Source: Paenibacillus nasutitermitis
GTDB lineage: Bacteria > Bacillota > Bacilli > Paenibacillales > Paenibacillaceae
DNA length: 32,000 nucleotides
Direction: 5' to 3'
Assembly (NCBI RefSeq): GCF_014641075.1
Contig: NZ_BMHP01000001.1
Location: 1,820,171-1,852,170 of the forward strand
The notes below the pieces were generated by a model. It had not been told where the DNA came from, did no database searches, and saw only the letters and a program-made list of their open reading frames with translations. A program made the position numbers and the translations under genes. The stretch's first letter is position 1, and every line of letters starts with the position of its first letter. Positions 933-21,497 of the stretch are shown here, in pieces.

Positions 933-945
933 AGTGGTTTGAGGG

Positions 946-972: not shown

Positions 973-975
973 ATG

Positions 976-1031
976 TCCTTTTCAGCGTTGTTTAAGCTTC
1001 CTTTCAGCATCTCTAACGGATTTCTAAGAAT
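976..1031 (+). promoter_or_regulatory. Candidate regulated promoter of the ABC operon: direct repeats TCCTTTTCAGC (976-986) and TCCTTTCAGC (999-1008), then a -10-like TAAGAAT (1025-1031)
   Basis: Two near-identical 10-11-nt direct repeats with their TTCAGC cores 22 bp apart (two helical turns). The distal-to-proximal layout ends in TTCAGC-N16/17-TAAGAAT. It lies between the kinase terminator and the next gene. Confidence 0.35.
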
Positions 1032-1049
1032 CTGCTGGCATACTGGGCA

Positions 1050-3307: not shown

Positions 3308-4328
3308 ATGTAGGGCCTCCGGAGTCAGGCTGCTGCTGGCCGCAGTATGCCTTTCGCTATTGGCCGGGTGCTCCTTGCTTCCCCAGGAGGAAGAGCCGGA
3401 AAAGATGCCTGATATCCGGATACCGAAAATCTCCCAAAAGGCGGAATACCCGGTTAAACGAAGCACGTTGGAGCTGAAGGTGAGCGGAGCCGGAAAGCTG
3501 ATGTCGAAGCGGGAGGAGAATCTATTGTTTACGGTAGGCAATCTCCGGATTGCAGAAGTATATGTGAAAGCAGGCGACACGGTAAAAAAAGGGCAGCTGC
3601 TGGCCTCTCTGGATACGGGCGATATTGAAAGCCAAATCCGCCGTAAAGAGGTGGAATCGGAGAAATTCCAGCTTGATATGAAGGACTCCTTGCGCATATC
3701 GGATGAAGGAAATGCGGTAATGTCCCGGAAGCAGCAGCTGGACATTGCCTTATTGAAGGAGGAGCTTGCCGATTTGCGCAGCAAGCTCAATGGTACGAAG
3801 CTGGTAGCGCCATTCGCCGGGACCATCGTCAGTTTTACGGCGGAGAAAGGCGATAATACGATAGGTTACGAAAAAATCGGGCAGATCGCAGACATAAACT
3901 CGTTAATCGTCGCCGTGCAATTCAGTTCCAGCGATCTTGAAAAAATCGCCCCGGGGATGGAATCCATGGTCGGCATCAATGCCGCCGGTGATTATGCAGG
4001 TTCGCTAAAACGGCTTCCGCTGACTACGGAAGAGCCGAAGGATGGCGAGAAATCGCTGGATCTCTATACGCTGATCGACCTGCCCAAGCTGCCTGCCGGT
4101 GCCGCCAATGGGACGCCGCTCACCGCTTCGGTTATTGTGGAGCGCCGCAAAGATGTATTGACTATCCCGCTTGCAGCATTGCGGAAGCAGAACAGTCGCA
4201 ACTATGTGCTTGTATCCAATGCGGATGGCAGCAAAGGCGAGGTGGATGTGGAAATCGGTGTACAGACCTCGACGGAGGTGGAAATTATTAAAGGGCTGGA
4301 GGAAGGCCAGAAGGTCGTGGGGAAATAA
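3285..4328 (+). CDS. Membrane-fusion / periplasmic-adaptor (HlyD/MacA/YknX-like) lipoprotein
   Basis: Lipobox LSLLAGC when started at ATG 3285 (the listed ORF starts at 3237). Lipoyl-like hairpin (VKAGDTVKKGQLLASLD ... LVAPFAGTIV), a coiled-coil stretch and a C-terminal beta domain. Its stop overlaps the next start (TAATG at 4326-4330). Confidence 0.8.
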   Translation: MVRLYQNKCRASGVRLLLAAVCLSLLAGCSLLPQEEEPEKMPDIRIPKISQKAEYPVKRSTLELKVSGAGKLMSKREENLLFTVGNLRIAEVYVKAGDTVKKGQLLASLDTGDIESQIRRKEVESEKFQLDMKDSLRISDEGNAVMSRKQQLDIALLKEELADLRSKLNGTKLVAPFAGTIVSFTAEKGDNTIGYEKIGQIADINSLIVAVQFSSSDLEKIAPGMESMVGINAAGDYAGSLKRLPLTTEEPKDGEKSLDLYTLIDLPKLPAGAANGTPLTASVIVERRKDVLTIPLAALRKQNSRNYVLVSNADGSKGEVDVEIGVQTSTEVEIIKGLEEGQKVVGK

Positions 4329-7117
4329 TGCGGATTATGATCTATCTGGTTCTGAAAAGCTGGCAGAACCGCTGGTATACAATAGGTACGCTGCTTGGTC
4401 TGACTGTTGCGGTAGCGTTTGCCATGAGTATCCCGATGTACGCGGATGGCACGCTCAAGAGACTCGTCGCGCAGTCGCTCGCGGAAGAAACAAAAGGACT
4501 GCCTCCCGCTTCGCTTTATATGAAATATCAGTCCGCAGGAAGTGCAGAGACCGATATGGAAGGGCTCGAGGAAGTAAACCAGTGGATCAATGGCGAGCTT
4601 CCCGGAAGAATCGGATTCCCCAAGCTGGCATCCTCAAGCAAGATAAGCCTGCCGGTATCTGCCGTTCGGCCCGCTCTTGCCGGCAAGGACGGTTCCAGCC
4701 GACTGGTGCGTATGGAGCTTGCCTTCCAGAGCGGAATTACCGAGGGGGCGGATCTGGTTGAGGGAAAGCTGCCGCGGGATGGGATCCAGGGCGGCGTTAT
4801 TGAAGCTATGGTTCTGAGCGAGACGTTGACCCGCTACGGCTGGAAGACGGGAGACAGCTTCTATTACAGCGCCAAAGACAGCGACGGCAAAACAAAGAAG
4901 CTGATTGTTCAGATTGTGGGTACATACAAGCTGAAGGATGACACCGATTTGAGCTGGGCCATTGACGGAAAGGATAGTCTGGCCGACCTGTTTGTTGTCA
5001 ACCGCAAGACCATGACGGATACGCTGCTCAAGGACAACAAGCTTGCTCTGGATTCTGCCGGCTGGTTTGCGGCATTCGATTTACAGAATATACGCATCAG
5101 CGATTTGTCATCGCTCATCGGAGAACTGCAGCGGCTGGAGATCAACCTCCATCAAATGCTGGAGAATACAAAAGTGAATCTGACATTTATCGATATGCTG
5201 GGTGATTTCCAGCAGCAGAGCTTGCTGCTTCAGGCGATGCTGTTCGCGCTTGCCGCACCGGTCCTGGCGATGGTGCTGTATTATATTACGCTTAACGCAC
5301 AGCAATCGCTTGCCAGGCAGCGAAGCGATATCGCTGTGCTCCACAGCCGCGGCTCCAGTCCGCGGCAAATTATTTGGCTGTATTCCATTGAAGCGCTTCT
5401 GCTCGGCGGCGCGGCACTGCTCCTCGGACTTGGCCTCGCCTGGTGGATGGCCAAGACGATCGGCTCCTCGAGCGGGTTTCTTTCGTTTGTTGGCCGCAAA
5501 TCGATCCCTGTCGGGTGGAACAAAACCTCTTGGTTGTTCGGGATCTCCGCCGCGGCGCTTGCGGTCATCGCAACGATAGCACCGGTCCGGGCTTATGCCG
5601 GAACGTCAATCGTAGAGCATACGCAGCTGCGGGAAAAAGCCGGCAGACCGCCGTTCTGGCAGCGGCTGTATCTGGATGTCGCGCTGCTGGCATTGTCTGC
5701 GGCAGGCTGGTACATGCTCAATGCCGGGATTATCGCCACTGTCAGCACTAGCGGCGTCGCAGCGGAGATGCAGCCGGCGATTTTTATTGTTCCGGCCTTG
5801 TTCATTTTCGCTGGTGGACTGTTGTGCTTGCGTCTGTTCCCGCTGCTGCTCCGTTTCTGGAATAGGCTCACGAAGAATCGCATGCCGGTTCCGGTCTATT
5901 TAACCTTCACCCAGTTGTCCCGTTCGGCCGTATCGTTCTTTCCCCTGATGATTCTGCTCATTCTCACCATTGGGCTGGGTGTTTATAATGCATCAGCCGC
6001 GAGGACAATGGATGTGAATGCCTCTGACCGCACGAATTACCGGTATGGCAGCGATGTCGTACTGAAATCGGCATGGGAAGGCGTTCAGGACGAGAATGAC
6101 GAGAACAAGATCTATTATACCGAACCTTCCTGGCAAGCCTTTGACAAGCTGGATGGAGTGAAAGGCGCGGCAAGGGTCATGAAGACGACAGGCAAAGTTG
6201 AAATTAGCGGTAAAAATGCCGGCAGCGGGCAGCTCATCGGGATCGATAATGCCGCTTTTGCCAAAACGGCATGGTTACGCGAGGATTTGAATCCGTATCA
6301 TTTCTACGAATATCTTGACGCGCTGGGAACTGCGGAGCAGGCGGTACTGGTATCGGAGAAATTCGCTAAGCAAAATGGACTAAAAGAAGGCGACCCGCTG
6401 CGCATACTGATCGGTTACGATCATGTCGCCGTAGATTTCGTCGTGGTAGGCATCGTCAGCTACTGGCCGAGCTTATATCCGGATACGTCGCCGTTCTTCG
6501 TGGCCAATCTGGATTATATCTATCAGCAAATCGAGAAGATTCCGTACGAGGTATGGCTGAATCTGGAAGAAAACGCAAAGCTCGCCCCGGTGCTTGCGAA
6601 GCTGGCAGAGCGCGGCGTCGCGGTGACCAGCGTGGACGATGCGCGCAGCGAGCTCATCGAACGGCGGAATCATCCCGCTCAGGGCGGCGTGTTCGGGATT
6701 CTCAGCCTCGGATTCATCATCTCACTGCTGGTTTCGCTGCTCGGCTATCTGATTTTCTGGTTCTTCACCTTGTCGCGCAGAAGTGTCCAGCTCGGTATTC
6801 TGAGGGCAATGGGACTAACGGGCGGACAAGTAACCGGCATGCTGCTGCTTGAGCAGCTGTTCACGACCGGGTTGTCGGTTGTCTCCGGAATTGGTCTGGG
6901 CACATTCGCCAGCCGCCTGTTTCTGCCGTTTCTGCAGGGCGGAAGCGCTCTTGGGTCGCAGCAGGTACCGCCGTTCCGGATTGTGTTCGATGCTGCGGAT
7001 ACGATGAAGCTGTATATCGCAACGGGCATTATGCTGGCGGCCGGTGCCAGCTTGCTTATCCTCAAGCTGAGGCGCTTGCGCATTACACAGGCTGTCAAGC
7101 TTGGAGAAGAACGGTAG
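4328..7117 (+). CDS. Large ABC permease with two FtsX/MacB-type domains (929 aa)
   Basis: Two FtsX-type blocks, ~aa 300-420 (RQRSDIAVLHSRGSSPRQIIWLY) and ~aa 790-929 (RRSVQLGILRAMGLTGGQVTGML). Each is preceded by a large non-hydrophobic region. Confidence 0.85.
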   Translation: MRIMIYLVLKSWQNRWYTIGTLLGLTVAVAFAMSIPMYADGTLKRLVAQSLAEETKGLPPASLYMKYQSAGSAETDMEGLEEVNQWINGELPGRIGFPKLASSSKISLPVSAVRPALAGKDGSSRLVRMELAFQSGITEGADLVEGKLPRDGIQGGVIEAMVLSETLTRYGWKTGDSFYYSAKDSDGKTKKLIVQIVGTYKLKDDTDLSWAIDGKDSLADLFVVNRKTMTDTLLKDNKLALDSAGWFAAFDLQNIRISDLSSLIGELQRLEINLHQMLENTKVNLTFIDMLGDFQQQSLLLQAMLFALAAPVLAMVLYYITLNAQQSLARQRSDIAVLHSRGSSPRQIIWLYSIEALLLGGAALLLGLGLAWWMAKTIGSSSGFLSFVGRKSIPVGWNKTSWLFGISAAALAVIATIAPVRAYAGTSIVEHTQLREKAGRPPFWQRLYLDVALLALSAAGWYMLNAGIIATVSTSGVAAEMQPAIFIVPALFIFAGGLLCLRLFPLLLRFWNRLTKNRMPVPVYLTFTQLSRSAVSFFPLMILLILTIGLGVYNASAARTMDVNASDRTNYRYGSDVVLKSAWEGVQDENDENKIYYTEPSWQAFDKLDGVKGAARVMKTTGKVEISGKNAGSGQLIGIDNAAFAKTAWLREDLNPYHFYEYLDALGTAEQAVLVSEKFAKQNGLKEGDPLRILIGYDHVAVDFVVVGIVSYWPSLYPDTSPFFVANLDYIYQQIEKIPYEVWLNLEENAKLAPVLAKLAERGVAVTSVDDARSELIERRNHPAQGGVFGILSLGFIISLLVSLLGYLIFWFFTLSRRSVQLGILRAMGLTGGQVTGMLLLEQLFTTGLSVVSGIGLGTFASRLFLPFLQGGSALGSQQVPPFRIVFDAADTMKLYIATGIMLAAGASLLILKLRRLRITQAVKLGEER

Positions 7118-7139
7118 AGAGTATGAGGAGGGCCCCGCA

Positions 7140-8060
7140 ATGATCCATTGTGAAGGACTGATGAAAATTTATAAGACCGATGATATCGAGGTCGTTGCCC
7201 TGCAGGGCTTGAACCTGACAGTCAAACAGGGAGAAATGATGGCGATCATCGGCAACAGCGGCAGCGGGAAATCGACTCTGCTCAATATTCTCGGCGGTCT
7301 TGACAGACCTTCGGCAGGTACGGCGCTTGTGGGCAAATGGGATCTGCTGAAGATGACGAAGGAGCAGCTAATTGAATACAAGCGCGGAACCGTCGGCTTT
7401 ATTTGGCAAAACAATGGCCGGAATCTTGTTCCCTACCTGACGTCTCTTCAGAACGTCGAACTGCCGATGCTTATTCAGGGCAAAGCGGACAGGTCCTATG
7501 CCAAGCAGCTGCTGGCTGCAGTCGGACTTGAGCATCGCTTGGGCAGCCGCTTAACGCAGCTTAGCGGAGGCGAGCAGCAGAGGGTCGCAATCGCCATTTC
7601 CCTGGCAAACCGCCCTCAGCTTGTGCTTGCCGATGAACCGACTGGGTCAGTTGACAGCGCCACGGGAGAGCAGATTCTTGATATATTCCGCCGCCTTAAT
7701 CAGGATATGGGTGTGACGATTGTCATTGTCACGCATGACCTCTCCGTCGCGGACAAGGTAGACCGGGTTATTGCCATTCGGGACGGCATGACCAGCACAG
7801 AGTGGGTCAAGCGCAGCGCAGGCGAAGCTTCCGGGGATGGACATGTTGAAGAGTCCTCCCAAGATTCCGGGAATGCTCTATTCGGTTCGCATCATGAGGA
7901 ATTCGTTGTTATCGATCGCGCGGGCCGTCTGCAAATTCCCAAAGCGTATCTGGAAGCGATGAACGTCAGCGGCAAAGCGGTGCTTGAATTTGACGGCAAG
8001 CGGGTCACAATCGGCCCGCCCGAAGAAGATGCGGTTCGGTCCGAACCAACCGAAACGTGA
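7140..8060 (+). CDS. ABC transporter ATP-binding protein, ATPase 2, with a ~90-aa C-terminal extension
   Basis: RBS GAGGAGGG 7 nt before ATG 7140. Walker A GNSGSGKST, signature LSGGEQQRVAIA, Walker B VLADEPT. The tail contains VVIDRAGRLQIPKAYLEAMNVSGKAVLEFDGKRVTIGP. Confidence 0.9.
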   Translation: MIHCEGLMKIYKTDDIEVVALQGLNLTVKQGEMMAIIGNSGSGKSTLLNILGGLDRPSAGTALVGKWDLLKMTKEQLIEYKRGTVGFIWQNNGRNLVPYLTSLQNVELPMLIQGKADRSYAKQLLAAVGLEHRLGSRLTQLSGGEQQRVAIAISLANRPQLVLADEPTGSVDSATGEQILDIFRRLNQDMGVTIVIVTHDLSVADKVDRVIAIRDGMTSTEWVKRSAGEASGDGHVEESSQDSGNALFGSHHEEFVVIDRAGRLQIPKAYLEAMNVSGKAVLEFDGKRVTIGPPEEDAVRSEPTET

Positions 8061-8545
8061 GCGGACAAATGGAACAGGCAGCGGTGAATCTGGATGAACT
8101 ATATGCGGCACACTCCGCTTATTTGAACAAATATATGTATAAATTGACACGCGATCGGGAGGATGCAGCCGATCTAGTGCAGGATATTTTCCTGAAATTA
8201 TGCCTGCAGGGAAGTCTGCCGGATCATCCGAAAGCATGGCTTTCCCAGACCGGCTACCGGCTGTTCATCGATCAGTGGCGCCGCAAGCAGCGTTTGAGCC
8301 AGCTCCAGCTGGAGAAAGCTTACTGCAATATTGCCGCCCCGGAACAAGCCGCTCTTGATAGGGAATTCGAGAGATATGTAGATCGGCTGCTTTTGCGCCT
8401 CAATCCACGGATGCGTACTGCTTTATATCTGCGAATATACAGGCATTCCAGCTATGAAGAAATTGCCCGGATGCTAGATTGTTCGCAGAATACGGTCAAA
8501 ACCTTCATCCGGCGAGGCAAAGCGCAATTGTCCAAGTGGCTGTGA
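8057..8545 (+). CDS. ECF-type RNA polymerase sigma-70 family factor
   Basis: Region 2 (DREDAADLVQDIFLKL ... FIDQWRRKQR) and region 4 HTH (SYEEIARMLDCSQNTVKTFIRRGKAQL). The GTG start overlaps the stop of ATPase 2 (GTGA at 8057-8060). Confidence 0.85.
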   Translation: MSGQMEQAAVNLDELYAAHSAYLNKYMYKLTRDREDAADLVQDIFLKLCLQGSLPDHPKAWLSQTGYRLFIDQWRRKQRLSQLQLEKAYCNIAAPEQAALDREFERYVDRLLLRLNPRMRTALYLRIYRHSSYEEIARMLDCSQNTVKTFIRRGKAQLSKWL

Positions 8546-8715
8546 GGATGAACGACTGCAAGCTCCGTTACCGTCAGTTTACGTCCCAGAGTGGATGGGC
8601 GTATCAGAGATTCATTTTACCAGTTTGCAGGAGAAATGGAGTTCATAGGAGAATCTACAGACAATCAGTCATTAGACAAAAGGAAACAGAAGTATATAGA
8701 GGAAGGAGTCTCCAA

Positions 8716-9375
8716 GTGAACCGACATATAAGAGGCGTTATTTTAGAGGGGTATTCAAACGCTGGAAAAACGTCAGTTTTGAAAGCATTAAAGCTGCTGC
8801 TTGCAGAGGATGAGTCAGCAGAGCGCAGTATTATTGTTCTGAGCGAACATTACTCCCAAGTGTTAAACAATGTTCACGGTAATTTCCAACAGTTAGATCG
8901 CGATGAGCATCTTGTCTTATTACAGGAGCGTGTCGGGATGCTGCGTAAATTAAATGAATGGGCCAATTATTTGGGGCCGGATGCGTCGAGGGGATCAAGA
9001 GGAATATTTTTTATATTGGAAAGATTTCATTTAAATCATAGAGTTGCATTTCCCACTGCATCTTCAAATGATATAAAATCACTCGAAAATGAATTGGTCA
9101 AACTGGGAGCTCAGTGTGTATTATTAACGGTGTCGCCGGAAATTGTTGAGCAGCGAATGCAAAGCCGATCATCTCAGGAATGGACTAACATAACGCGAGA
9201 AGAAATTACGAAAGCAGCAGATGAGTTTATACATACGCAATCAGAATTGTATAAACAGTCTCTTCAATCTGACGTCCCTACTATAGAAATAAATACGGAT
9301 GCTAAAGACTGGGTTTCCTACGCAAACAAAATAATGGCGGTATTAAACGAAACAGAGAAATTCTCAAACTTATGA
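8716..9375 (+). CDS. P-loop NTPase, nucleoside/nucleotide-kinase-like, function unknown
   Basis: Strong RBS GGAAGGAG 7 nt upstream of GTG 8716. Walker A in VILEGYSNAGKTS. The listed ORF start 8479 adds an Arg-rich, non-protein-like 79-aa extension that overlaps the sigma gene. Confidence 0.6.
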   Translation: MNRHIRGVILEGYSNAGKTSVLKALKLLLAEDESAERSIIVLSEHYSQVLNNVHGNFQQLDRDEHLVLLQERVGMLRKLNEWANYLGPDASRGSRGIFFILERFHLNHRVAFPTASSNDIKSLENELVKLGAQCVLLTVSPEIVEQRMQSRSSQEWTNITREEITKAADEFIHTQSELYKQSLQSDVPTIEINTDAKDWVSYANKIMAVLNETEKFSNL

Positions 9376-10279: not shown

Positions 10280-11860
10280 TTGAACAGGAGTGCTCCCCCT
10301 ATGCTTTCTAAAAATCGCCTCGGCGCTGGACCAAAAGTTTATTTCAGACCCGAAATCAAAAACTGTCCGCATTGCGAGAAAAAATTAGTGCGTTCGCACA
10401 ACGCATGGAACAAAAAAATCTCTACCTTGACCGGCGTCATTCACGCATGGAGCATGGCTTATACATGTCCCAACGAAAGCTGCTCATACGCCAGCATTAC
10501 CTATAAATCAGCAGAAGCAGAAGCGCTAAGCATGAAGCATTCTTCGTACGGCTATGACGTCCTCTGTCTCGTTGGCGAGTTGCGCTTCAAGCAACATCGC
10601 ACCTGCAAAGAAATTGCAGACGCGTTGAATGAACGTGGCATCGTAACCAGCGAACGATACGCGCAAACGCTGTACGAACGTTATCAAGCGCTGTTGGCCG
10701 CCAGCCTCGACGATCATGTCAGACAAAGTTTGGCAGAGACCACGGCGCAAAACGGCGGAATCATCCTTTCCATGGACGGCGTCCAACCCGAGAAGGGGAA
10801 CGAGATATTCTATGTCATTCGTGAGGTATTCAGCGGCACGATTCTGGCGGCTCGGAACATGAAGAGCGGAGCGGCAGCCGAACTGCGTACGCTGATCGAT
10901 CCCATTATCGATATGGGGTATCCCATCGTAGGCATTGTAAGCGACGGACAGGTTTCCATCCGGCAGGCATTCGAATCACTCTTGCCTGACGTGCCGTATC
11001 AGTACTGCCAGTACCATTACTTGAAAGATATTGCCAAGCCTGTCGTGGATGCGGATCGAAAGCTCAAAATGGAACTGAAAAAGAGCATGCGCGGCCTGCG
11101 GGATGTGGAACGAAAAATCGAGCAGGCTGAGAAAAAGGCAACGGAAGCTTCACAAGCAAACGCAGATGCGAATCCTGACTCTTCAAGCGCCGCAGCGGAA
11201 ACAACCGTGCTCGCAGAAACGCAGGTGGCGAAGGGATATGTGGCCGCTGTCCGCGCGTTGCTTCTGGAAGATGGTGAACCACCGCTTGATCTACCGGGCA
11301 TGATGGTCTACGAACGTGCCCAAGCCATACAGGCGTCGCTTGCGCGATGCTTGACTAAAAAAAGAGCCTCATCTGCTCCAGAGTCTGGTCAGAATTTTCA
11401 GTAAACTTGGCGATCAGGCCTCGCGCTATGAAGCCGTAGCCCGCTGGACGAAGCCTGTTGCCCATATTGCGGCAGCCTTGGAACCAGACGAAGACAAGAC
11501 CAGCGAAACCGTTGAATGGGAAATGACCCACGTATTGTACTGGCTCAAACAGACCTATACGGAAGAGAACGATTCCGTTATGGTCAACAATGTGACCAAC
11601 TATTCCCGCGGGTTCTGGAAAGGGCTGTTTACCTGTTACGATCATTATTTCATCCCGCGAACGAATAACGATCTGGAACAATTTTTTCGCCGAACTGTCA
11701 TCGCCGAATCACGGGCCTTCGTAACTGGAACAGCTACATCGTTCGAAACGGAGAAATGGTTGTACTTGTGGACGATGCGCTTCGACAAAAACACGTCATC
11801 GCCCGTTTGCGAACTGTGAGCTATGAAACGTGTACGCAGCGTAAGTCTCACTGTTCTTAG
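10280..11860 (+). pseudogene. DDE transposase (family not assignable by eye) with an N-terminal Zn-finger, disrupted by two frameshifts
   Basis: CPHCEKK...CPNESC zinc motif, D-containing blocks LSMDGVQPEKG and IVSDGQVSIRQA, conserved PRTNNDLEQFFRR...RRITG. Protein-like sequence runs in frame 2 (10280-11363), frame 0 (11352-11693) and frame 2 again (11690-11860). The switches fall at the A7 run 11357-11363 and near 11688-11696. Confidence 0.75.
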
Positions 11861-12565
11861 CCAAACTAACAAGCAGACGAGCTACTTTACTGCATAATTT
11901 CATGATGGACTTCATCTTCTTTAGCTTCTTTACCTCAACATTGTAACGGTGCAAAGCCCGGATTTCTGGATTCCTCATGACCATACACATCATCATGAGA
12001 TAGAGAAAATGACGCAGACGCGGCCAACCTCGTTTGCTTAGCACCATCTTTCCTCGCCACTTCTCCGAACTGGCCTCAGCTAGGTTCAAACCGGCATGTC
12101 GCAGCAACGCATTTCCGTGCGAATAGCCACTTAGATCACCGGCATCACCGAGTACACCAGCTAGGCTTGTCGCACTGACGCCTCGTATTTCAAGCAGCTT
12201 CTGCGCGTAGGGAATGCGTTCCAGAATGAGATGGAGCTCGCGTTCAATCTGTTCCAATTGGCGCTGGGCTAGGTCGTATTCTTCAAGCAATTGCCCAAGA
12301 TGAAGCTTGTAAGCATGAAGTGCTTTGGTGGTTCCAACACTCGATTTTGCAAGGAGGTGCTGAGTAGATCCTGAATCCAATTTTCGAATAGTGTGAACCC
12401 TTCACGATGGTTACCAAACTCGAGCGGAGTGCCAAGCGCAATGCCACGAAAGCTGACGGCGCGAGCCACATGGACTTCCTGCGCGATGTCAACACCAACG
12501 ACCAGGTGATGAACGGTAATGTTTTCAATCCGTTGATTTTGCTTGTCCTGTGCTTTAAAATTCAT
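11796..12565 (-). pseudogene. IS110-family transposase, frameshifted and internally deleted
   Basis: The N-terminal DEDD-type start (HHLVVGVDIAQEVHVARAV...GFTLFENWIQ, ORF 12269-12565) and the C-terminal Transposase_20-like part (LLEIRGVSATSLAGVLGDAGDLSGY...SKRGWPRLRHFLY, ORF 11796-12380) lie in different frames. The total of ~256 codons compares with ~340-400 for intact family members, and the central catalytic block is absent. Confidence 0.8.
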
Positions 12566-12881: not shown

Positions 12882-13535
12882 ATGAAATGGCTTCAAAGAT
12901 CTGGATCAGGGGTATTATTCGTTGTTGTACTCGCCCTATTTTCTACCTGGCTCGGTTCCTTAATGCCTGTAATAGGCGGTCCAGTATTTGGTATACTCCT
13001 GGACGTTATGATCAACAATACGGTAGGCAAACCGAAGTGTTTTCAAGCGGGCATCCAGTTTAGTTCAAAAAATGTGCTGCATTGGTCCATTATTGCGCTT
13101 GGCTGCGGGCTAAGCTTGACGCAGGTATGGCAGACGGGCTCGGAATCTTTTTCACTGAAGATGGTCAGTTTAGCTGCTTCTTTCCTCGCGGCTTACGGGT
13201 TCGGTCGGCTGCTGAACATCCCGGATAGACTAAAAACATTGATCGGAGCTGGAACAGGCATCTGCGGCGGTTCCGCTATTGCTGCCGTATCGCCGATTAT
13301 CGAGGCCGAAGAAATCGAGATTGCCTACGCGATTTCGACTATATTTTTGTTCAACATTGCGGCGGTTCTTCTGTTCCCCTCGCTCGGCCATTGGTTTAAC
13401 ATGTCCGACGAAGCCTTTGGTTTATTAGCCGGAACTGCGATCAACGATACCTCGTCAGTAGTGGCCGCTGGTTACATTTATAGCAATGACGCCGGAAATT
13501 ACGCTACCATTGTCAAAGATAGCCAATACAGATGA
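12882..13535 (+). pseudogene. YeiH/UPF0324-family (putative sulfate exporter family) membrane protein, 3'-truncated
   Basis: Family-typical blocks LIGAGTGICGGSAIAAVSPII and LAGTAINDTSSVVAAG. The family is ~330-350 aa. Here the family-like sequence stops at ~aa 210 (...NYATIVK) and the frame ends 7 codons later. Confidence 0.65.
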
Positions 13536-13923
13536 AATTGCTCAAGCCGTCCATGCCAACGAGCTCGGAATCGGACTGGTGGAAGGAAATGTCGAATGTC
13601 GGGATATTCTGGTCACTCCCCCGTTTATGGAGGATGAAATGGTTTTGGTCGCACCTCGCAATCATCCGTTAAGCTTGCAAAGGATAATTGAACCGGGAGA
13701 GCTGCAAGACCAGGTTTGGGTATTCAGAGAAAATGGCTTCGTTACACGGGCATTTAGCGATCAATTTATCGGGGAGCTGGGCCTTTGCATCAAACGCTCC
13801 TTTGGCTCTACGTTTCATCGAGGTATCGTGAAATTGTTTATCTTGCATGAGAAACACATCCAAAGCCCGCCACCCGCTGGTTATCATACCAGTGAGTGGC
13901 GGTTTTTTCATTTGCGTGAATGA
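13486..13923 (+). pseudogene. Internal fragment of a LysR-family regulator (substrate-binding domain only)
   Basis: ELGIGLVEG...FMEDEMVLVAPRNHPL...VWVFRENGFVTRAF matches the LysR co-inducer domain. There is no N-terminal HTH. LysR-like sequence is lost after ...KRSFGST (~13815). A terminator hairpin lies inside the nominal ORF. Confidence 0.6.
13867..13908 (+). terminator. Rho-independent terminator-like hairpin
   Basis: 14-nt arms CCGCCACCCGCTGG / CCAGTGAGTGGCGG (2 mismatches), loop TTATCATA, then T6. Confidence 0.55.
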
Positions 13924-14008
13924 TAACTAACTGTAGACACGGGCCAAATCAATTTTATATTATTCGTATATCCGTATATAATGGACGAAAACTCGTAGGA
14001 GGCCAATT

Positions 14009-14191
14009 ATGGATGCAATGTCAGTGAAAGAGGCATCAGAAAAATGGGGTATCTCAGAGCGTCGCGTTCAAAAGCTCTGTGAAGAAGACCGTATCCCCGG
14101 CGTGGTACGCTTTGGGCACTCTTGGGCAATGCCCAAAGATGCGGAAAAGCCACCTGATGGACGATTGAAATTTGAACGAAAAAAATCTTAA
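14009..14191 (+). CDS. Small helix-turn-helix DNA-binding protein (MerR/excisionase-like HTH)
   Basis: RBS GTAGGAGG. SVKEASEKWGISERRVQKLCEEDRIPG is a typical HTH_17/MerR-like motif. TATAAT at 13977-13982 lies upstream. Confidence 0.7.
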   Translation: MDAMSVKEASEKWGISERRVQKLCEEDRIPGVVRFGHSWAMPKDAEKPPDGRLKFERKKS

Positions 14192-14193
14192 AT

Positions 14194-14226
14194 CTACAGT
14201 CAAACTACAGATTACTATGCTATCTT
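14194..14226 (+). promoter_or_regulatory. Candidate vanR-vanS promoter with two phased CTACAG repeats (putative VanR boxes)
   Basis: CTACAG at 14194 and 14205 (11-bp phasing), 7 nt, then TGC-TATCTT (extended -10-like, 14218-14226). The geometry is the same as at 16876-16930. Confidence 0.6.
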
Positions 14227-14244: not shown

Positions 14245-14910
14245 ATGGGCGTACGAATTCTGCTTGTCGAGGATGACGAGCATATATGTAATACCGTCAA
14301 AACCTTTTTAAGAGAAGCCGGATATAAAGTAGACGCCTGCCTAGATGGTAGCGAAGCGCATAAAAACTTTTATGATAATGTTTACCAACTTGTCATTCTC
14401 GACATCATGCTGCCTGGTATAAGCGGTCACGAGCTTTTACGGGAGTTCCGCAAGATTAACAATACCCCTATTCTGATGATGACCGCGCTTTCCGATGATG
14501 AGAATCAAATCAAGGCGTTTGACGCGGAAGCGGATGATTATGTGACAAAGCCGTTCAAGATTCAGCTTCTGTTGAAACGTGTGGAAGCCCTGCTCCGGCG
14601 AAGCGGCGCGTTGGCAAAGGAAGTCTGCTGCGGCAAGCTGACGCTTTTGCCGGAAGATTTCAAGGTGGTTTATGAAAACAGGGAGTTGCCCTTGACAATC
14701 AAAGAATTTGAAATCCTTATGCTATTGGTTCAGAACAGGGGTAGGATGGTATCTCATGAAATTATCTTATCCCGCATATGGGGCTATGACTTTGATGGTG
14801 ATGGCAGCACAGTGCATACCCACATCAAAAACCTGCGAGCGAAATTACCGGATAATATTATCAAGACTGTTCGTGGCATAGGTTACCGAGTGGAGGAAGA
14901 AATGACATGA
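14245..14910 (+). CDS. vanR: OmpR-family response regulator VanR (VanR-B-like)
   Basis: Receiver domain (LVILDIMLPG, ADDYVTKPF) and winged helix (TVHTHIKNLRAKL...RGIGYR). Long stretches match my recollection of VanR-B (ILLVEDD.HICNTV, TPILMMTALSDDENQI.AFDAEADDYVTKPFK, LLKRVEALLRRSGALAKE). Confidence 0.9.
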   Translation: MGVRILLVEDDEHICNTVKTFLREAGYKVDACLDGSEAHKNFYDNVYQLVILDIMLPGISGHELLREFRKINNTPILMMTALSDDENQIKAFDAEADDYVTKPFKIQLLLKRVEALLRRSGALAKEVCCGKLTLLPEDFKVVYENRELPLTIKEFEILMLLVQNRGRMVSHEIILSRIWGYDFDGDGSTVHTHIKNLRAKLPDNIIKTVRGIGYRVEEEMT

Positions 14911-16247
14911 AAAATAGAGGAATCTTTTTCAAGGTATTCATTTATACAATAATTTTCTCGATACTGTTGGTTGGCGTGACGGCAGCCCTGCTATCTACAC
15001 AGATTATCTCCTATTTCTCACGTGTTCGATTGCAGGAAATCACCAGCACCTATCAGAGTATCGTTATCCAGTCGAAAGGTGAAAATGACATCACAGAAGT
15101 GGCGAGGCAGTTCTACGAAAAGAACCAGTCCTTGCAATTCTACATCAAGGACATGGAAGGACACATTGTTTACGCAACACCCGAAGCTGAAACATCCGGC
15201 ATCGAAAGCGGCGCACCACCTTACAGTAGCACAATAATGTTGCGTATGGATAATGATTATTTACTTTATGTGCTAAAAAGTGACCTTATCGCGATGGACT
15301 ACGATAAGTGGATTGTGCAAGCCCTCGTAGTGTTGTCCGCCATGCTTGCTGTCTGCGTCATAAGCACGTTTGTCTTTGCAAGGCAGATAACAAGACCAAT
15401 CAAAACTCTGGCGGATGCTACGAATAAGATGGCTAATCTCGAAGCAGTCCCACCACTGCCGGAGCGCAGTGATGAACTTGGTGCATTAGCCCGAGATGTT
15501 CATTCTATGTACAGCAAGTTGAAAGAAACCATATCCAAATTAGAGGACGAAATTCTGCGGGAGCGTGAATTGGAGGAAACACAGCGATATTTCTTCTCGG
15601 CGGCTTCCCATGAACTCAAAACGCCTATCGCAGCCACAAGCGTCTTGTTGGAGGGAATGCTTGAAAATGTAGGCGATTACAAAGACCACCCCAAATACCT
15701 GCGCGAATGCGTGAAGATGATGGACGCGCAGAGCAAAATTATTTCTGAAATACTGGAAATTGTTAATCTGAACAAAGGGAAAATCGTACCCGTTCCTGAA
15801 AGGCTGGACATAAGACATATAGTTGCTGACATACTTCCTGACTTTCAGATATTGGCTGAGGCAAACGGTCAGCGTATTGTTACGGACATTCCTGACGGAG
15901 AGGCCTGCCTTGCCGACCATAAAATGCTCCAAAAGGCGCTTTCCAACATCATTTTGAATGCGGTGCAGAACACGCCCAATGGCGGTGAGATTCGGATATG
16001 GAGTGAACCTGTGGCAAATCAATACCGCCTTTGCATACTAAACACAGGGGCAAGGATTGACGATGCCGTGTTGCCGAAGCTGTTTGACCCATTCTACCGT
16101 GTAGATAAGGTGCGGAGCCGGAAAGACAGGCGAAGCGGCTTGGGACTGACTATTGTGAGGAAAATGCTGGAGTCAATAAATGTTGATTTCGCTTTCGAAA
16201 ACGCCCCTGACGGCGTTCTGTTTTGGATGAACTTGCCGAAGGCGTAA
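14907..16247 (+). CDS. vanS: Sensor histidine kinase VanS
   Basis: ATGA overlap with vanR. Two TM segments flank a ~110-aa extracytoplasmic loop. H-box SHELKTPI, N-box ILNAVQNTP, G-box RSGLGLTIV. At 446 aa it is the same size class as VanS-B. Confidence 0.85.
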   Translation: MKNRGIFFKVFIYTIIFSILLVGVTAALLSTQIISYFSRVRLQEITSTYQSIVIQSKGENDITEVARQFYEKNQSLQFYIKDMEGHIVYATPEAETSGIESGAPPYSSTIMLRMDNDYLLYVLKSDLIAMDYDKWIVQALVVLSAMLAVCVISTFVFARQITRPIKTLADATNKMANLEAVPPLPERSDELGALARDVHSMYSKLKETISKLEDEILRERELEETQRYFFSAASHELKTPIAATSVLLEGMLENVGDYKDHPKYLRECVKMMDAQSKIISEILEIVNLNKGKIVPVPERLDIRHIVADILPDFQILAEANGQRIVTDIPDGEACLADHKMLQKALSNIILNAVQNTPNGGEIRIWSEPVANQYRLCILNTGARIDDAVLPKLFDPFYRVDKVRSRKDRRSGLGLTIVRKMLESINVDFAFENAPDGVLFWMNLPKA

Positions 16248-16272: not shown

Positions 16273-16806
16273 ATGAAACCAGAAAAGCGAAACACACTTA
16301 CAATCGCGTTGTTCGTAGTATATATACTGCTGCAAGTAGGAATTATCCTCTTTAAACTGCCGTTTTATTCCGAAAAATTATCAGACGGAATACGAGTAAT
16401 TAACCTGATTCCATTTCAGGAGTCTTTCGATGAAAACGGAGTTTTAATCTTGCGTGAAATTATTGATAATATACTTCTTTTTATACCGCTCGGCATCTAT
16501 ATCTGTATGCTAAAAAACGAATGGCCTTTCATGAAAAAAGTCCTTCCAATTTTCAGCTTAACTTTAGTGTTTGAAGTCATACAATTCATTTTTGCGATTG
16601 GAAGAAGTGATATTACTGATGTACTCGGCAACACGCTTGGAGGGGTAATCGGCATTGGCATTTATGCTTTATTGTTCAGAATTTTCAAAAACAGGACTTT
16701 TAGGATTATAAATATACTTGCCTTGGTAGTAACAATTTGCGTAGTAGCGCGTTTCGCCCATCTGTTTTACCTCAGCCATTTTGTCATGAAGCGTCTGCAT
16801 CCCTGA
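16273..16806 (+). CDS. vanZ: VanZ-family membrane protein
   Basis: 177 aa with 4-5 TM segments. VanZ-like blocks NLIPF, NILLFIPLGIY, EVIQFIF..GRSDITDVLGNTLGGVIG. It starts 25 nt after the vanS stop with RBS GAGGAG. Confidence 0.8.
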   Translation: MKPEKRNTLTIALFVVYILLQVGIILFKLPFYSEKLSDGIRVINLIPFQESFDENGVLILREIIDNILLFIPLGIYICMLKNEWPFMKKVLPIFSLTLVFEVIQFIFAIGRSDITDVLGNTLGGVIGIGIYALLFRIFKNRTFRIINILALVVTICVVARFAHLFYLSHFVMKRLHP

Positions 16807-16832
16807 TGTTAGCGACCATACCTTTTCACTTT

Positions 16833-16864
16833 GACCGACAGGGTTATTCCTGCCGGTCTTTTTT
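16833..16864 (+). terminator. Rho-independent terminator after the vanZ-like gene
   Basis: GACCGACAGG / CCTGCCGGTC 10-bp stem (1 mismatch), loop GTTATT, T6. Confidence 0.7.
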
Positions 16865-16875
16865 ATTTCTCTCCG

Positions 16876-16930
16876 CTACAGACAAACTACAGGTTGGCTA
16901 CAGGGAAAATACAGATTGCTTTGCAATAAT
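16876..16930 (+). promoter_or_regulatory. Candidate resistance-operon promoter with four 11-bp-phased (C)TACAG repeats (putative VanR boxes)
   Basis: CTACAG at 16876, 16887 and 16898, and aTACAG at 16909. Then 7 nt and TGC-AATAAT (16922-16930). The distal pair CTACAGaCAAACTACAG differs by 1 nt from CTACAGtCAAACTACAG at 14194-14210. Confidence 0.65.
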
Positions 16931-16987
16931 ATCAGCATGACAACACGCAAATACCTGTTTTATGCCATATGAAGGAGGACTACTATA

Positions 16988-18025
16988 GTGAAAATGAAAA
17001 AGCTAATCGCACTCGTTTTAGCGCTTTTTCTCGTGCTTTTCCTCGCTGCTTGCAACAGCAGCACGACCACGCCGCCCTCGTCGGCAGCAGCCATTTCGCC
17101 GACGAACACAGAACTGCCTGCTAATTCGCTACAAGGAGATGCAGGTTCCACCCACACAGAGGACATTGAAAACATTTCGGTAGATATTATGGCAACAAAC
17201 GCCTATGTACTAAATGTTGATACCAATTCTGTTCTCTATCAGAAAAACAGCGATAAGCATATAGCTCCGGCAAGCACAGCCAAAATGCTTACAGCTTTAA
17301 CAGCCTTAGATTATTGCTCCCTTGATGATACGATTACAGTTGGCTCGGAGATAGACCTGATTGCCTCTGATTCTTCCAGAGCATGGCTTAGTAATGGGGA
17401 TACGATGACGGTCAGACAACTTTTAGTCGCTTTGTTGCTTCCCTCCGGCAATGACGCTGCGTACACACTTGCTGTTAATGCGGGGAAAAGGATAGCCGGT
17501 GAAGATGGCCTTGGAGCGCAGCAGGCTGTTAAAGTGTTTGTCGATGCGATGAATCAAAAAGCAAAAAAAGTTGGAGCAACTTCTTCCAATTTTATAGCCC
17601 CTGACGGCTACGATGCGGACGGGCAGTACACAACCGCTTTTGACCTTGCGCAGATAGCAAAAGTGTGTTTAGGCAATAATGCTCTGTCTGAAATTATGGG
17701 CAGTTACAAGATATATGATACATGGATGAATGGGCGGGAAGTTACTTATCGCAATACTAACGAGTTGATAAACCCTGATAGCCAATACTATTATTCCAAT
17801 GCTATCGGACTTAAAACCGGCACTACCGGGGATGCTGGTTCCTGCCTTGTTTCAGCGGCTGACATAAATGGACAAACATATATTTGTGTTGTCATGGGTT
17901 CCTCTGCGGGTATCAGATTTTCGGACTGCCTAACTGTTTTTAGTGCAATAGACCCGACAATATCCCTGCCCCAAGAAAACAATGCTACCCCTTCTGCTGC
18001 TCCCAGCGGACTGAGGAGGCGTTGA
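16988..18025 (+). CDS. Serine-type D-Ala-D-Ala carboxypeptidase (peptidase S11, low-MW PBP) lipoprotein in the vanY position
   Basis: RBS GAAGGAGG 9 nt before GTG 16988. Lipobox LFLAAC. Active-site triad of motifs SxxK (ASTAKML), SxN (PSGND) and KTG (LKTGTT). Confidence 0.85.
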   Translation: MKMKKLIALVLALFLVLFLAACNSSTTTPPSSAAAISPTNTELPANSLQGDAGSTHTEDIENISVDIMATNAYVLNVDTNSVLYQKNSDKHIAPASTAKMLTALTALDYCSLDDTITVGSEIDLIASDSSRAWLSNGDTMTVRQLLVALLLPSGNDAAYTLAVNAGKRIAGEDGLGAQQAVKVFVDAMNQKAKKVGATSSNFIAPDGYDADGQYTTAFDLAQIAKVCLGNNALSEIMGSYKIYDTWMNGREVTYRNTNELINPDSQYYYSNAIGLKTGTTGDAGSCLVSAADINGQTYICVVMGSSAGIRFSDCLTVFSAIDPTISLPQENNATPSAAPSGLRRR

Positions 18026-18063: not shown

Positions 18064-18891
18064 ATGAGAAGAAAAAGACTAACGCAATTATTTCCATTCC
18101 TGCTACCGGTCAGGGTAATGCAACGGAAGATGTGTTTTTATACCGGTATGCGGCTTGATGGCCTTCGCTATGCGGGAACCATTGACGAGTCGCAGCTTCC
18201 TTACAAGATCTTTGAAGCGGGCTGCGCATTATACAATAGCAATACCGGCTTCGATATGATGTATCAGGAAAATAAAGTGTTTAACCTGAAGCTGGCGGCA
18301 AAGACACTGAGCGGTCTTTTGATAAGACCGGGTGAAACCTTTTCCTTTTGGCGGCTAGTTCGCCATGCGGATAAGCATATTCCCTATAAAGACGGTCTTA
18401 CAGTGGTAAATGGAAAACTCACCACCATGTCTGGTGGCGGTATGTGTCAAATGAGCAATCTGCTGTTTTGGATGTTCCTGCACACGCCGCTGATGGTCAC
18501 CGAGCGGAGCGGCCACAATGTCAAGGAGTTTCCCGAACCAAACAGTGACGAGATCAAAGGGGTGGACGCAACAATCTCCGAGGGATGGATTGACTTAAAG
18601 GCGCGAAACGATACCGATTGCACCTATCAAATTTCAGTGGCGTTCGATAATGAAAACATCATAGGAACTGTGTTCGTAGACAAACGACCCCAAGTGCTGT
18701 ACAAAGTCACAAACGGCAGCACCGAGTATTTCCGCGAAAGCGGCGAGATTTATGAATACGTCAAGGTTGAGAGAGCGGAAATTAACGCGGACACCAGTGA
18801 AATAACAGGGCAAAAGCTGCTCTACACCAACAAATGTAAAATCTGCTACCCTCTGCTGGATAACGCAGAAATCAAGGAGGCGAAAAATTGA
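18064..18891 (+). CDS. vanW: VanW-family protein
   Basis: At 275 aa it is the same length as VanW of the vanB operon. Long recalled matches (KRLTQ.FPFLLP, FDM.YQENKVFNLKLAAKTL.GLLIRP.ETFSFWRLVRHAD, GKLTTMSGGGMCQMSNLLFW, EFPEPNSDEIKGVDATISEGWIDLK). Confidence 0.85.
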   Translation: MRRKRLTQLFPFLLPVRVMQRKMCFYTGMRLDGLRYAGTIDESQLPYKIFEAGCALYNSNTGFDMMYQENKVFNLKLAAKTLSGLLIRPGETFSFWRLVRHADKHIPYKDGLTVVNGKLTTMSGGGMCQMSNLLFWMFLHTPLMVTERSGHNVKEFPEPNSDEIKGVDATISEGWIDLKARNDTDCTYQISVAFDNENIIGTVFVDKRPQVLYKVTNGSTEYFRESGEIYEYVKVERAEINADTSEITGQKLLYTNKCKICYPLLDNAEIKEAKN

Positions 18892-19859
18892 TGAACAACA
18901 TTGGAATTACCGTTTATGGTTGCGAGCAAGATGAGGCGGATGTGTTCCGCAGACTGTCACCTCGCTTTGGCGTCATGCCTACTATTATTAGCGACGCCGT
19001 ATCAGAAACCAATGCTATATCAGCCCCCTGCAATCAATGTATCAGTGTGAGCCACAAATCTGTGGTTTCCGCCTCTATTCTTCTTGCGCTGAAGAGAGCC
19101 GGCGTGAAATATATCTCTACCCGAAGCATCGGCTGCAATCATATCGATACAACTGCTGCTAAGAGAATGGTTATCGCTATCGGCAATGTGACGTATTCGC
19201 CGAATAGCGTTGCTGATTTTACCCTAATGCTGATGCTTATGGCGATACGCAACGCGAAGTCCATTGTACGCTCTGTGGAAAAACATGATTTCAGGCTGGA
19301 TAGCGTCCGCGGCAAGGTACTGCGCGACATGACAGTCGGCGTGCTGGGAACTGGTCAAATAGGCCAAGCGGTTATTGAGCGGCTGCGGGCATTTGGATGT
19401 CGTGTGCTGGCTTATGATCGCGGCCAGAAAATAACGGCAGACTATGTTCCGCTTGACGAGTTGCTGCGAAACAGCGATATTGTTACGCTTCATGTGCCGC
19501 TGGGTGCGGATACGCATCATATCATCGGTCACGAACAAATAAGGGGAATGAAGCAAGGCGCGTTTATTATCAATACAGGACGTGGAGCGCTTATAGATAC
19601 CGATGCGCTTATTAAAGCATTGGAAAACGGAAAACTGGGCGGGGCCGCATTGGATGTATTGGAGGGAGAGGAAGGGCTATTCTACTTTGATTGCACACAA
19701 AAATCAATTGATAATCCATTTTTACTGAAACTTCAAAGGATGCCGAACGTGATCATCACGCCGCATACGGCTTATTATACCGAACAGGCGTTGAGTGATA
19801 CCGTTGAAAATACAATTAAAAACTGTTTGGACTTTGAAAGGAGCCTAGCGCATGGATAA
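18891..19859 (+). CDS. vanH: D-lactate (D-2-hydroxyacid) dehydrogenase VanH
   Basis: RBS AAGGAGG, with ATG 18891 overlapping the vanW stop. NAD fold GVLGTGQIGQAV, catalytic region TGRGALID...PHTAYYT. Strong recalled similarity to VanH-B. Confidence 0.9.
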   Translation: MNNIGITVYGCEQDEADVFRRLSPRFGVMPTIISDAVSETNAISAPCNQCISVSHKSVVSASILLALKRAGVKYISTRSIGCNHIDTTAAKRMVIAIGNVTYSPNSVADFTLMLMLMAIRNAKSIVRSVEKHDFRLDSVRGKVLRDMTVGVLGTGQIGQAVIERLRAFGCRVLAYDRGQKITADYVPLDELLRNSDIVTLHVPLGADTHHIIGHEQIRGMKQGAFIINTGRGALIDTDALIKALENGKLGGAALDVLEGEEGLFYFDCTQKSIDNPFLLKLQRMPNVIITPHTAYYTEQALSDTVENTIKNCLDFERSLAHG

Positions 19860-20883
19860 AGTAAAAGTTGCAATCCTGTTTGGCGGTTGTTCGGAGGAGC
19901 ATGATGTGTCGGTCAAATCCGCAATGGAGATCGCCGCTAACCTGGACACCGAAAAATACGAGCCGTTATACATCGGCATTACGAAATTCGGTGTTTGGAA
20001 AATGTGCGAAAAACCTGGCCCGGAATGGGAAAACGGCAATGGCTGTTCAGCCGTGCTCTCTCCGGATAAAAAAACGCACGGATTGCTTGTTCTAAAAAAC
20101 AATTCATATGAAATCCACCATGTTGATGTCGCATTTCCGGTTTTGCACGGCAAGTCGGGTGAAGATGGAGCGATACAAGGTCTGTTTGAATTGTCCGGTA
20201 TCCCCTATGTGGGCTGCGATATTCAAAGCTCCGCGATTTGTATGGACAAGTCGCTGGCCTACATCATGGCGAAAAACGCCGGCATCGCGACTCCCGAATT
20301 TTGGGTTATCCATGAAGACGACAGGGCAGCAACAGATGCGTTTACCTATCCTGTTTTTGTTAAGCCGGCGCGTTCAGGTTCATCCTTTGGCGTGACAAAA
20401 GTGGGTGGTGCGGACGAATTGGAGGCCGCGATTGAAGCGGCCAGTCAATATGATAGCAAAATCTTAATCGAGCAGGCTGTTGTCGGCTGTGAGGTCGGTT
20501 GTGCCGTGATGGGCAACCGTTCCGAGTTGATTGCCGGCGAGGTGGACCAAATTAGGCTAACGCACGGTCTCTTTCGCATTCATCAGGAGGCCGAGCCGGA
20601 AAAAGGCTCCGAAAACGCGGTTATAACCGTTCCCGCACACCTTTCGGCAGAGGAGCGAGGACGGATACGGGAGTTTGCAAAACAAATCTATAAGGCGCTC
20701 GGCTGTAGAGGTCTTTCCCGCATTGATATTTTTTTACAAGATAACGGCCGCATCGTGCTTAACGAAGTCAATACGTTGCCCGGGTTCACGTCATACAGCC
20801 GTTATCCCCGGATGATGGCAGCTGCAGGCATAACGCTTCCCGAACTGATTGACCGCCTGATCGTACTCGCGTTAAAGGGGTGA
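19852..20883 (+). CDS. D-alanine--D-lactate ligase (VanA/VanB/VanF clade)
   Basis: 8-nt overlap with vanH. Blocks KVAILFGGCSEEHDVSVKSA, GEDGAIQGLFELSGIPYVGCDIQSSAICMDKS, FRIHQE.EPEKGSENA, LNEVNTLPGFTSYSRYPRMMAAAGI.LPELIDRLIVLALKG. The His in FRIHQE corresponds to VanA His244, associated with D-Lac specificity. Confidence 0.92.
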   Translation: MDKVKVAILFGGCSEEHDVSVKSAMEIAANLDTEKYEPLYIGITKFGVWKMCEKPGPEWENGNGCSAVLSPDKKTHGLLVLKNNSYEIHHVDVAFPVLHGKSGEDGAIQGLFELSGIPYVGCDIQSSAICMDKSLAYIMAKNAGIATPEFWVIHEDDRAATDAFTYPVFVKPARSGSSFGVTKVGGADELEAAIEAASQYDSKILIEQAVVGCEVGCAVMGNRSELIAGEVDQIRLTHGLFRIHQEAEPEKGSENAVITVPAHLSAEERGRIREFAKQIYKALGCRGLSRIDIFLQDNGRIVLNEVNTLPGFTSYSRYPRMMAAAGITLPELIDRLIVLALKG

Positions 20884-20888
20884 TAAGC

Positions 20889-21497
20889 ATGGAAAAGGGA
20901 TTTGTATTTGTAGATGAAATATTGCACGGTGTTCGCTGGGACGCCAAATATGCGACATGGGACAATTTCACGGGAAAACCAGTAGACGGATATGAGGTCA
21001 ATCGCATAGTGGGAACACTTGCCTTAGCCCTTGCGCTGTTGGAGGCGCAGAAGCAAGCGGAGGCTCTTGGGTACGGTTTGCTGTTATTGGACGGGTATCG
21101 GCCCAAACGTGCGGTAGATTGCTTCCTGCATTGGTCCGAACAACCGGAAGACAACCTCACAAAAGAAAGATACTATCCGAATATCGAGCGAACCGAGATG
21201 TTTGCAAAGGGATATATAGCGTCACAATCAAGTCATAGTCGCGGAAGTGCTATTGATCTTACGCTTTACCACTTAGATACGGGTGAGCTTGTTTCCATGG
21301 GAGGAAGCTTCGATTTTATGGATGAGCGTTCACACCATGGGGCAAAAGGGATTGCAAGCATGGAAGCGCAAAATCGCAGACTTTTGCGTTCCATCATGGA
21401 AAACAGTGGGTTCGAACCATATAGCTTCGAATGGTGGCACTATGTATTAAGAGACGAACCATACCCCAATAGCTATTTTGATTTCCCTGTTTTATAG
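20889..21497 (+). CDS. vanX: D-Ala-D-Ala dipeptidase VanX
   Basis: RBS AAGGGG. HGVRWDAKYATWDNFTGKPVDGYEVNRIVGT, Zn-site region SSHSRGSAIDLT and EWWHY. Confidence 0.92.
   Translation: MEKGFVFVDEILHGVRWDAKYATWDNFTGKPVDGYEVNRIVGTLALALALLEAQKQAEALGYGLLLLDGYRPKRAVDCFLHWSEQPEDNLTKERYYPNIERTEMFAKGYIASQSSHSRGSAIDLTLYHLDTGELVSMGGSFDFMDERSHHGAKGIASMEAQNRRLLRSIMENSGFEPYSFEWWHYVLRDEPYPNSYFDFPVL

Follow-up and report, generated by a model that had tools for sequence, protein, structure and literature searches.

The window, by which we mean the whole stretch of 32,000 nucleotides from Paenibacillus nasutitermitis that was analyzed, harbors a van gene cluster of the following composition, preceded by a small open reading frame:

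14009..14191, + strand: small helix-turn-helix (HTH) ORF, 60 aa (Pfam HTH_17, E = 4e-6)
14245..14910, + strand: vanR, VanR-B-type response regulator of the OmpR/PhoB family (NCBIfam vanR-B, 416.7 bits, allele cut-off 480, E = 1.7e-125)
14907..16247, + strand: vanS, VanS-B-type sensor histidine kinase (NCBIfam HK_VanS_B, 600 bits)
16273..16806, + strand: vanZ-like gene, last of the regulatory operon (NCBIfam vanZ-A, E = 1.7e-22, below cut-off)
16988..18025, + strand: penicillin-binding-protein-type (VanY-D-like) D,D-carboxypeptidase (NCBIfam vanY_of_D, 407.7 bits versus a cut-off of 625)
18064..18891, + strand: vanW (NCBIfam vanW-gen, 443.8 bits versus a cut-off of 365)
18888..19859, + strand: vanH, D-lactate dehydrogenase (NCBIfam vanH_gen, 591 bits versus a cut-off of 540)
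19852..20883, + strand: D-Ala-D-Lac ligase (NCBIfam D_ala_D_lac, 654.5 bits versus a cut-off of 550)
20880..21497, + strand: vanX, D-Ala-D-Ala dipeptidase (NCBIfam dipept_VanX, 368.8 bits versus a cut-off of 320)

The best NCBIfam match of the window VanR is vanR-B, and the protein is 80% identical to VanRB of Enterococcus faecalis, with an identical recognition helix (STVHTHIKNLRAKLP). Since its score lies below the allele cut-off, it is assigned to the VanR-B family and not as a VanR-B allele. The R-S-Z gene order of the regulatory operon is kept in many loci. The predicted induced operon begins with the VanY-D-like carboxypeptidase gene. The ligase is closest to VanA (690.9 against a cut-off of 775) and falls under every named-allele cut-off; its VanB score of 616.8 does not reach the VanB allele threshold of 750. 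Because the ligase stays under the VanB cut-off and the carboxypeptidase is VanY-D-like, not VanY-B, the regulatory module is of the vanB type, whereas the cluster is not a vanB genotype. The carboxypeptidase gene also differs from its homologue in Paenibacillus mendelii by an indel or repeat (window 17121-17164 versus L003:8911-8949) near the N-terminal linker, after a lipoprotein-like signal peptide, and the tblastn match extends over 1035 nt in the window versus 1116 nt in the P. mendelii locus (L003).

Promoter and terminator features were assigned within the cluster as follows:

14194..14210, + strand: two-box site CTACAGtcaaaCTACAG of the vanR promoter (PR), one predicted VanR dimer site (direct reading, scans, homology to vanB PRB)
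14218-14226, + strand: extended -10 of PR, TGcTATCTT = TGCTATCTT (direct reading, family consensus TACAGATTgct.tg.TATc.TT)
16833..16864, + strand: predicted intrinsic terminator ending the vanR-S-Z transcript, stem GACCGACAGG / CCTGCCGGTC followed by T6 (fold, homology to vanB)
16876..16914, + strand: four (C/A)TACAG boxes, two predicted dimer sites for phospho-VanR (VanR~P) spanning the -35 region of PY, the resistance promoter (direct reading, pattern scans, homology to vanB PYB)
16922-16930, + strand: extended -10 of PY, TGcAATAAT = TGCAATAAT (direct reading, family consensus)

Positions 16876-16930 of the window read cTACAGacaaacTACAGgttggcTACAGggaaaaTACAGattgcttTGCAATAAT. CTACAG occurs at 16876-16881, 16887-16892 and 16898-16903, and ATACAG at 16909-16914, with a start-to-start spacing of exactly 11 bp; a repeat search resolves this stretch into a tandem of two 22-nt units with 82% identity to each other. 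Single TACAG words are common in the window (37 copies on the + strand). The pair TACAG-N6-TACAG with at most one mismatch was found four times in the 32 kb on both strands, versus 0.76 expected, and these matches are confined to PY and the vanR promoter on either strand. The four-box pattern, with three mismatches allowed, matched once in the window versus 0.00 in 100 shuffles.

The last TACAG of PY is followed by 7 nt (ATTGCTT), then by TGC and the hexamer at 16925-16930. The -35 position is occupied by AGGGAA (16902-16907), with 2 of 6 positions in common with TTGACA, and across PY and PR the best -35 match is 2-3 of 6. A scan for sigma-70 promoters returned no complete promoter at the PY array, and a constitutive sigma-70 promoter was rejected there because the scan gives no -35/-10 pair. 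A promoter that has no usable -35 is as expected for activator-dependent transcription. The start of PY is predicted near A16937, relative to which the boxes span roughly -60 to -23. A further candidate, ATGCCA-16-TATAGT at 16962-16989, was discarded because it overlaps the ribosome-binding site and start codon and thus cannot serve the carboxypeptidase gene. Likewise, an RNA element was rejected as the reading of the repeats, as no Rfam family was found within 16807-16987 and the boxes also lie upstream of the -10.

The sequence upstream of vanR is CTACAGtcaaaCTACAGattactaTGCTATCTT, with CTACAG boxes starting at 14194 and 14205 (14194-14199 and 14205-14210). Here the last TACAG is followed by the 7 nt ATTACTA, then by TGC and the hexamer, and 10 nt separate the last box from the -10 hexamer in PY, in PR and in the family consensus. 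The intergenic hairpin at 16833-16864, with six U behind it, has a folding energy of -15.4 kcal/mol (z = -4.66); its stem is homologous to the vanB terminator and is kept together with the array across loci. The regulatory and resistance operons are therefore separated by a predicted intrinsic terminator, which is the vanB-type layout. An earlier note on this DNA had proposed four (C)TACAG repeats starting at 16876, 16887, 16898 and 16909, placed directly after a terminator at 16833-16864, a distal pair differing from the vanR pair at a single position, and the same distance from the last repeat to the -10 at both promoters. Direct reading gave the same coordinates and the same geometry, the distal pair CTACAGaCAAACTACAG and the vanR pair CTACAGtCAAACTACAG do differ at one base, and the hairpin with its T-run lies where it had been placed.

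The small HTH ORF stops 2 nt before the first PR box, with no terminator in between, and the promoter scan placed a sigma-70-like promoter, TTTATA-17-TATAAT, ahead of it at 13954-13982. Homologues occur at the same position in the P. mendelii locus and in L010 and L014, several Clostridia loci included. The ORF could supply basal read-through transcription into vanRS; alternatively, it could be an excisionase-like remnant of a mobile element.

The window region is about 74% identical at the nucleotide level to enterococcal vanB clusters, and we compared its promoters with those of E. faecalis pMG2200. There, PRB reads CTACAGggaaaCTACAGactgttaTGtTATCTT; the DNA upstream of vanYB reads GACCGACAGG..CCTGCCGGTC-T7 and then CTACAGgaaaaCTACAGactggCTACAGggaaagTACAGatgcgctTGcCATAAT, and the vanSB-vanYB spacer is GACCGACAGGtataacCCTGCCGGTC-T7-gctgCTACAGgaaaaCTACAGactggCTACAGggaaagTACAGatgcgctTGcCATAAT. 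Both systems have two TACAG boxes before vanR and four before the resistance operon, 11 bp apart, 10 nt from the last box to the hexamer of a TGn-extended -10, the same terminator stem directly upstream of the four boxes, a regulator with the same recognition helix, and the gene order vanR-vanS ... vanY-vanW-vanH-ligase-vanX. The presence of the same elements in the same order indicates that the window promoters are orthologues of PRB and PYB, and, together with the 80% identity of VanR to VanRB, it bears out the earlier note in its parallel between the two-plus-four boxes and vanB. The systems differ in that the window adds a vanZ-like gene to the regulatory operon, encodes a carboxypeptidase of the penicillin-binding-protein (VanY-D-like) type instead of VanY-B, and has a ligase nearer to VanA than to VanB. 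In addition, the -10 of PY is AATAAT in the window versus CATAAT (TGcCATAAT) at PYB, the gap from the terminator T-run to the first box is 11 nt versus 5 nt, and the host is Paenibacillus-like, not Enterococcus or a Tn1549 carrier.

Depardieu, Courvalin and Kolb are said to have described in 2005 the VanRB sites of the vanB promoters PRB and PYB (Tn1549/Tn5382), with footprints reportedly centered at about -32.5 at PRB and at about -33.5 and -55.5 at PYB. The distance of 22 bp between the two PYB centers agrees with the 22-bp tandem unit of the window. With a start at 16937, the 22-bp units of PY center nearer -28 and -50; the offset from the vanB values may reflect another start point or another definition of the sites.

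The arrangement also resembles two other known systems. The VanA-type VanR of Tn1546 likewise has one site at the regulatory promoter PR and two at the resistance promoter PH, and is an OmpR/PhoB-family activator whose affinity rises on phosphorylation, but its sites are of a 12-bp consensus type, (T/C)CGTANGAAA(T/A)T, and lie upstream of the -35 (PMC4405338). The pho boxes of PhoB are direct repeats with an 11-bp period that stand in place of the -35, about 10 bp upstream of the -10, with extra tandem boxes at some promoters and an activator that contacts sigma (PMC3335776 and established knowledge); the box sequence, regulon and signal are different. VanR homologues carry Trans_reg_C (PF00486) and Response_reg (PF00072) domains and the repeats adjoin the -10, as in class-II activation of the OmpR/PhoB type.

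To assess conservation, we retrieved 80 genomic loci through an alignment of VanR-B-like proteins. The close set comprises 46 loci, each from one genome, in which VanR is at least 73% identical to that of the window (514 kb in total). Of the 45 close loci that could be tested for it, 40 have a two-box array some 50 bp ahead of the vanR start, and an array of at least three boxes follows vanS or vanZ in 24 of 36 testable loci. Elsewhere in the close set only four arrays were found, each adjoining van-type genes. The remaining 12 of the 36 loci have no array of three or more boxes after vanS, and the array on the resistance side is thus not universal. The consensus is CTACAGAcAAACTACAG.ttggcTACAGggaaAaTACAGATTG..ttGccATAAT for the resistance promoter and CTACAGg.AAAcTACAGATTgct.tg.TATc.TT for the vanR promoter. 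Across loci, there is little or no variation in the boxes, the -10 and the terminator stem, whereas the inter-box spacers and the leader vary.

The van cluster of P. mendelii CCM 4839 is almost the same as that of the window, with 96-98% identity at the nucleotide level from window position 13803 onward; upstream of 13803 no similarity to this cluster was found. Immediately upstream of the boundary are a minus-strand fragment of an IS110-family transposase gene (11796-12380) and, at 12882-13923, ORFs that resemble YeiH and LysR and are truncated. The abrupt start of similarity, together with the transposase fragment and the truncated ORFs, suggests that the van module was inserted at this locus by horizontal transfer.

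The organization of the module is not constant among the related loci. Nine of them, mostly from Paenibacillus (L004, L008, L012, L018, L019, L026, L028, L059 and L060), have vanR-vanS (plus vanZ) behind a two-box promoter, and neither a four-box array nor van enzyme genes occur downstream of them; behind the conserved terminator of L004 lie unrelated genes (PAP2, YdeI-like). These loci look like orphan sensor/vanZ modules. Other loci contain two separate box arrays (L023 at 4318 and 4988; L066 at 7993 and 8960; L017 at 6957 and 9806), for example one before vanZ and one before a vanY-like gene. In L035, an array lies on the minus strand, starting at 2671 or 1367 depending on the scan, and a vanY-like gene is also on that strand. 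The double arrays and the array on the opposite strand indicate that the number of VanR-dependent transcription units varies between clusters.

The sequence of the boxes changes with the regulator. Sister regulators that are 55-63% identical to the window VanR have the helix IHAS(I/M)KKLR in place of VHTHIKNLR, and their loci (L045-L049, L051, L054-L057, L061-L065) carry GTTAGAT-N4-GTTAGAT boxes, which keep the 11-bp phase and the spacing to the -10. These GTTAGAT arrays occupy the corresponding places, some 50 bp ahead of the regulator gene and directly behind the kinase gene. Three loci whose regulators are 62-64% identical (L040-L042) have an intermediate TTCAG/TACAG form. This co-variation of box and helix across sequenced loci is the strongest computational evidence for the boxes as the putative recognition element of the regulator.

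The genes behind the boxes, on the other hand, vary. The first gene after the four-box array may encode a VanY-D-type or VanY-B-type carboxypeptidase, vanW, vanH, vanZ, or an FtsX-permease/ABC-ATPase system, which indicates that the array travels with the regulator and not with the cargo. An assignment of the boxes to the structural genes was rejected on the example of Brevibacillus laterosporus (L002), where vanW, vanH, the ligase and vanX are 78-83% identical to those of the window, the regulatory pair is VanR-A/VanS-Pt, and an array scan of the locus found no TACAG array. In several Clostridia and Paenibacillus, FtsX-permease and ABC-ATPase genes follow the vanS/vanZ box array instead of van ligase genes (L006:8615-12367; also L010, L014, L032, L039, L045-L047, L049, L051 and L065), and such targets occur in both the TACAG and the GTTAGAT subfamilies. 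It is conceivable, although we hold this only tentatively, that the box array and the extended -10 constitute a portable promoter cassette that travels with VanRS-B-family genes, co-evolves with the recognition helix and is coupled to varied cargo. TACAG would then pair with VHTHIKNLR, and GTTAGAT with IHAS(I/M)KKLR.

The conservation of the boxes, their orthology to vanB and their co-variation with the type of regulator together support their reading as VanR sites, and with it the view of the earlier note that the resistance genes form a separately induced unit. We consider it highly probable that the VanR-B-type regulator, encoded 2 kb upstream, recognizes the four (C)TACAG boxes and that these drive a separate, glycopeptide-inducible resistance operon; on this basis we infer binding, the start site, induction and cooperativity between the PY sites. 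In the proposed mechanism, each pair of boxes spaced by 11 bp would form one head-to-tail dimer site for VanR~P in the manner of OmpR/PhoB, with two adjacent dimer sites at PY and one, for autoregulation, at PR. VanS would sense the glycopeptide and the level of VanR~P would rise; VanR~P would then fill the sites in place of the missing -35 and recruit RNA polymerase to the extended -10 through a class-II contact with sigma, with transcription starting near 16937. A single transcript would cover the carboxypeptidase gene, vanW, vanH, the ligase gene and vanX, and the terminator at 16833-16864 would insulate this operon from the autoregulated vanR-vanS-vanZ transcript.

The literature on related systems is in line with these steps. 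A review (PMC10424368, citing Depardieu 2005) describes PYB as fully dependent on phospho-VanR and PRB as leaky. The VanR box overlaps the -35, as with PhoB, and contact with sigma has been predicted (PMC3335776); both VanR and VanRB bind both of their own promoters, and phosphorylation raises their affinity (PMC4405338, PMC8541618). In Bacillus subtilis, a PvanYB fragment from -215 to +65 is vancomycin-inducible through VanRS-B (PMC3968067). A phylogenetic survey noted VanR-B-type regulators in Paenibacillus, with promoters outside its scope (PMC11273654). Our search of the literature for CTACAG in connection with VanR returned only a primer sequence. The mechanism and the motif are already known from vanB, and the window adds an example rather than a principle.

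We also weighed other explanations of the repeats. They could be the product of chance, or a non-functional tandem duplication (22 bp x 2) of intergenic DNA, since the array can be described as two 22-nt tandem units and TACAG is a frequent word on the + strand of the window. We regard this as hardly credible, because shuffled sequences yielded zero four-box matches and dozens of divergent genomes have the same arrays at the same positions between variable spacers. It is somewhat less implausible, and still very improbable, that another protein binds the boxes, such as the product of the HTH ORF at 14009-14191 or a host regulator. The HTH_17 ORF does end just before the first PR box and is kept in several loci. 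However, no adjacent HTH homologue was detected in many of the array-bearing loci (for example, L001 and L013), and the box sequence changes with the recognition helix of VanR. Moreover, direct repeats 11 bp apart are the signature of OmpR/PhoB-type regulators, whereas small HTH proteins usually bind palindromes.

A different possibility accepts the boxes as VanR sites and places the main source of expression elsewhere, in read-through from PR past a leaky terminator, with the array serving as an operator, a roadblock or a fine-tuner. PRB is reported to be leaky, and a mutation that destroys the vanRS-B terminator leads to expression of the resistance genes by read-through, both according to PMC10424368 (citing San Millan 2009 for the mutation); unphosphorylated VanR also binds DNA (PMC8541618, PMC4405338). 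The same review states that the wild-type vanB terminator blocks read-through expression. In the window the terminator is strong (-15.4 kcal/mol with U6) and is conserved along with the array, and both promoters keep the extended -10 a constant 10 nt behind the last box. We therefore judge predominant read-through to be unlikely and retain transcription from PY as the preferred reading, with some leakage through the terminator possible alongside it.

Outside the van cluster, the only Rfam match in the window is a c-di-GMP-I riboswitch aptamer (RF01051; 22464-22550, + strand; 59.9 bits, E = 1.7e-9), which follows a GntR-family gene and precedes a gene pair for an oxidoreductase and a gluconolactonase. 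Upstream of the van island, positions 36-9375 (+ strand) encode a histidine kinase, a solute-binding protein, two ABC ATPases, an HlyD-like adaptor, a MacB/FtsX-type permease (929 aa) and an ECF-type sigma factor. The window scan found no TACAG arrays in this gene run, which appears unrelated to the box array.

For this locus, these results permit a confident annotation of the resistance genes as a predicted VanRS-B-type, glycopeptide-inducible operon with a promoter of its own, and, by analogy with vanB, constitutive expression would be expected to arise from mutation of the terminator or of vanS. The signature of two plus four TACAG boxes is conserved broadly enough to be used as a simple marker, at the sequence level, of VanR-B-type regulons in genomic and metagenomic data, and it exposes targets beyond the van ligase operons, namely FtsX/ABC transporters. 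If the array is indeed a portable cassette, then the window would represent a Paenibacillus reservoir form that combines vanB-type sensing with a VanA/F-like enzyme core and a VanD-type carboxypeptidase, and the ancestral output of the family may be a transporter rather than the remodelling of the cell wall.
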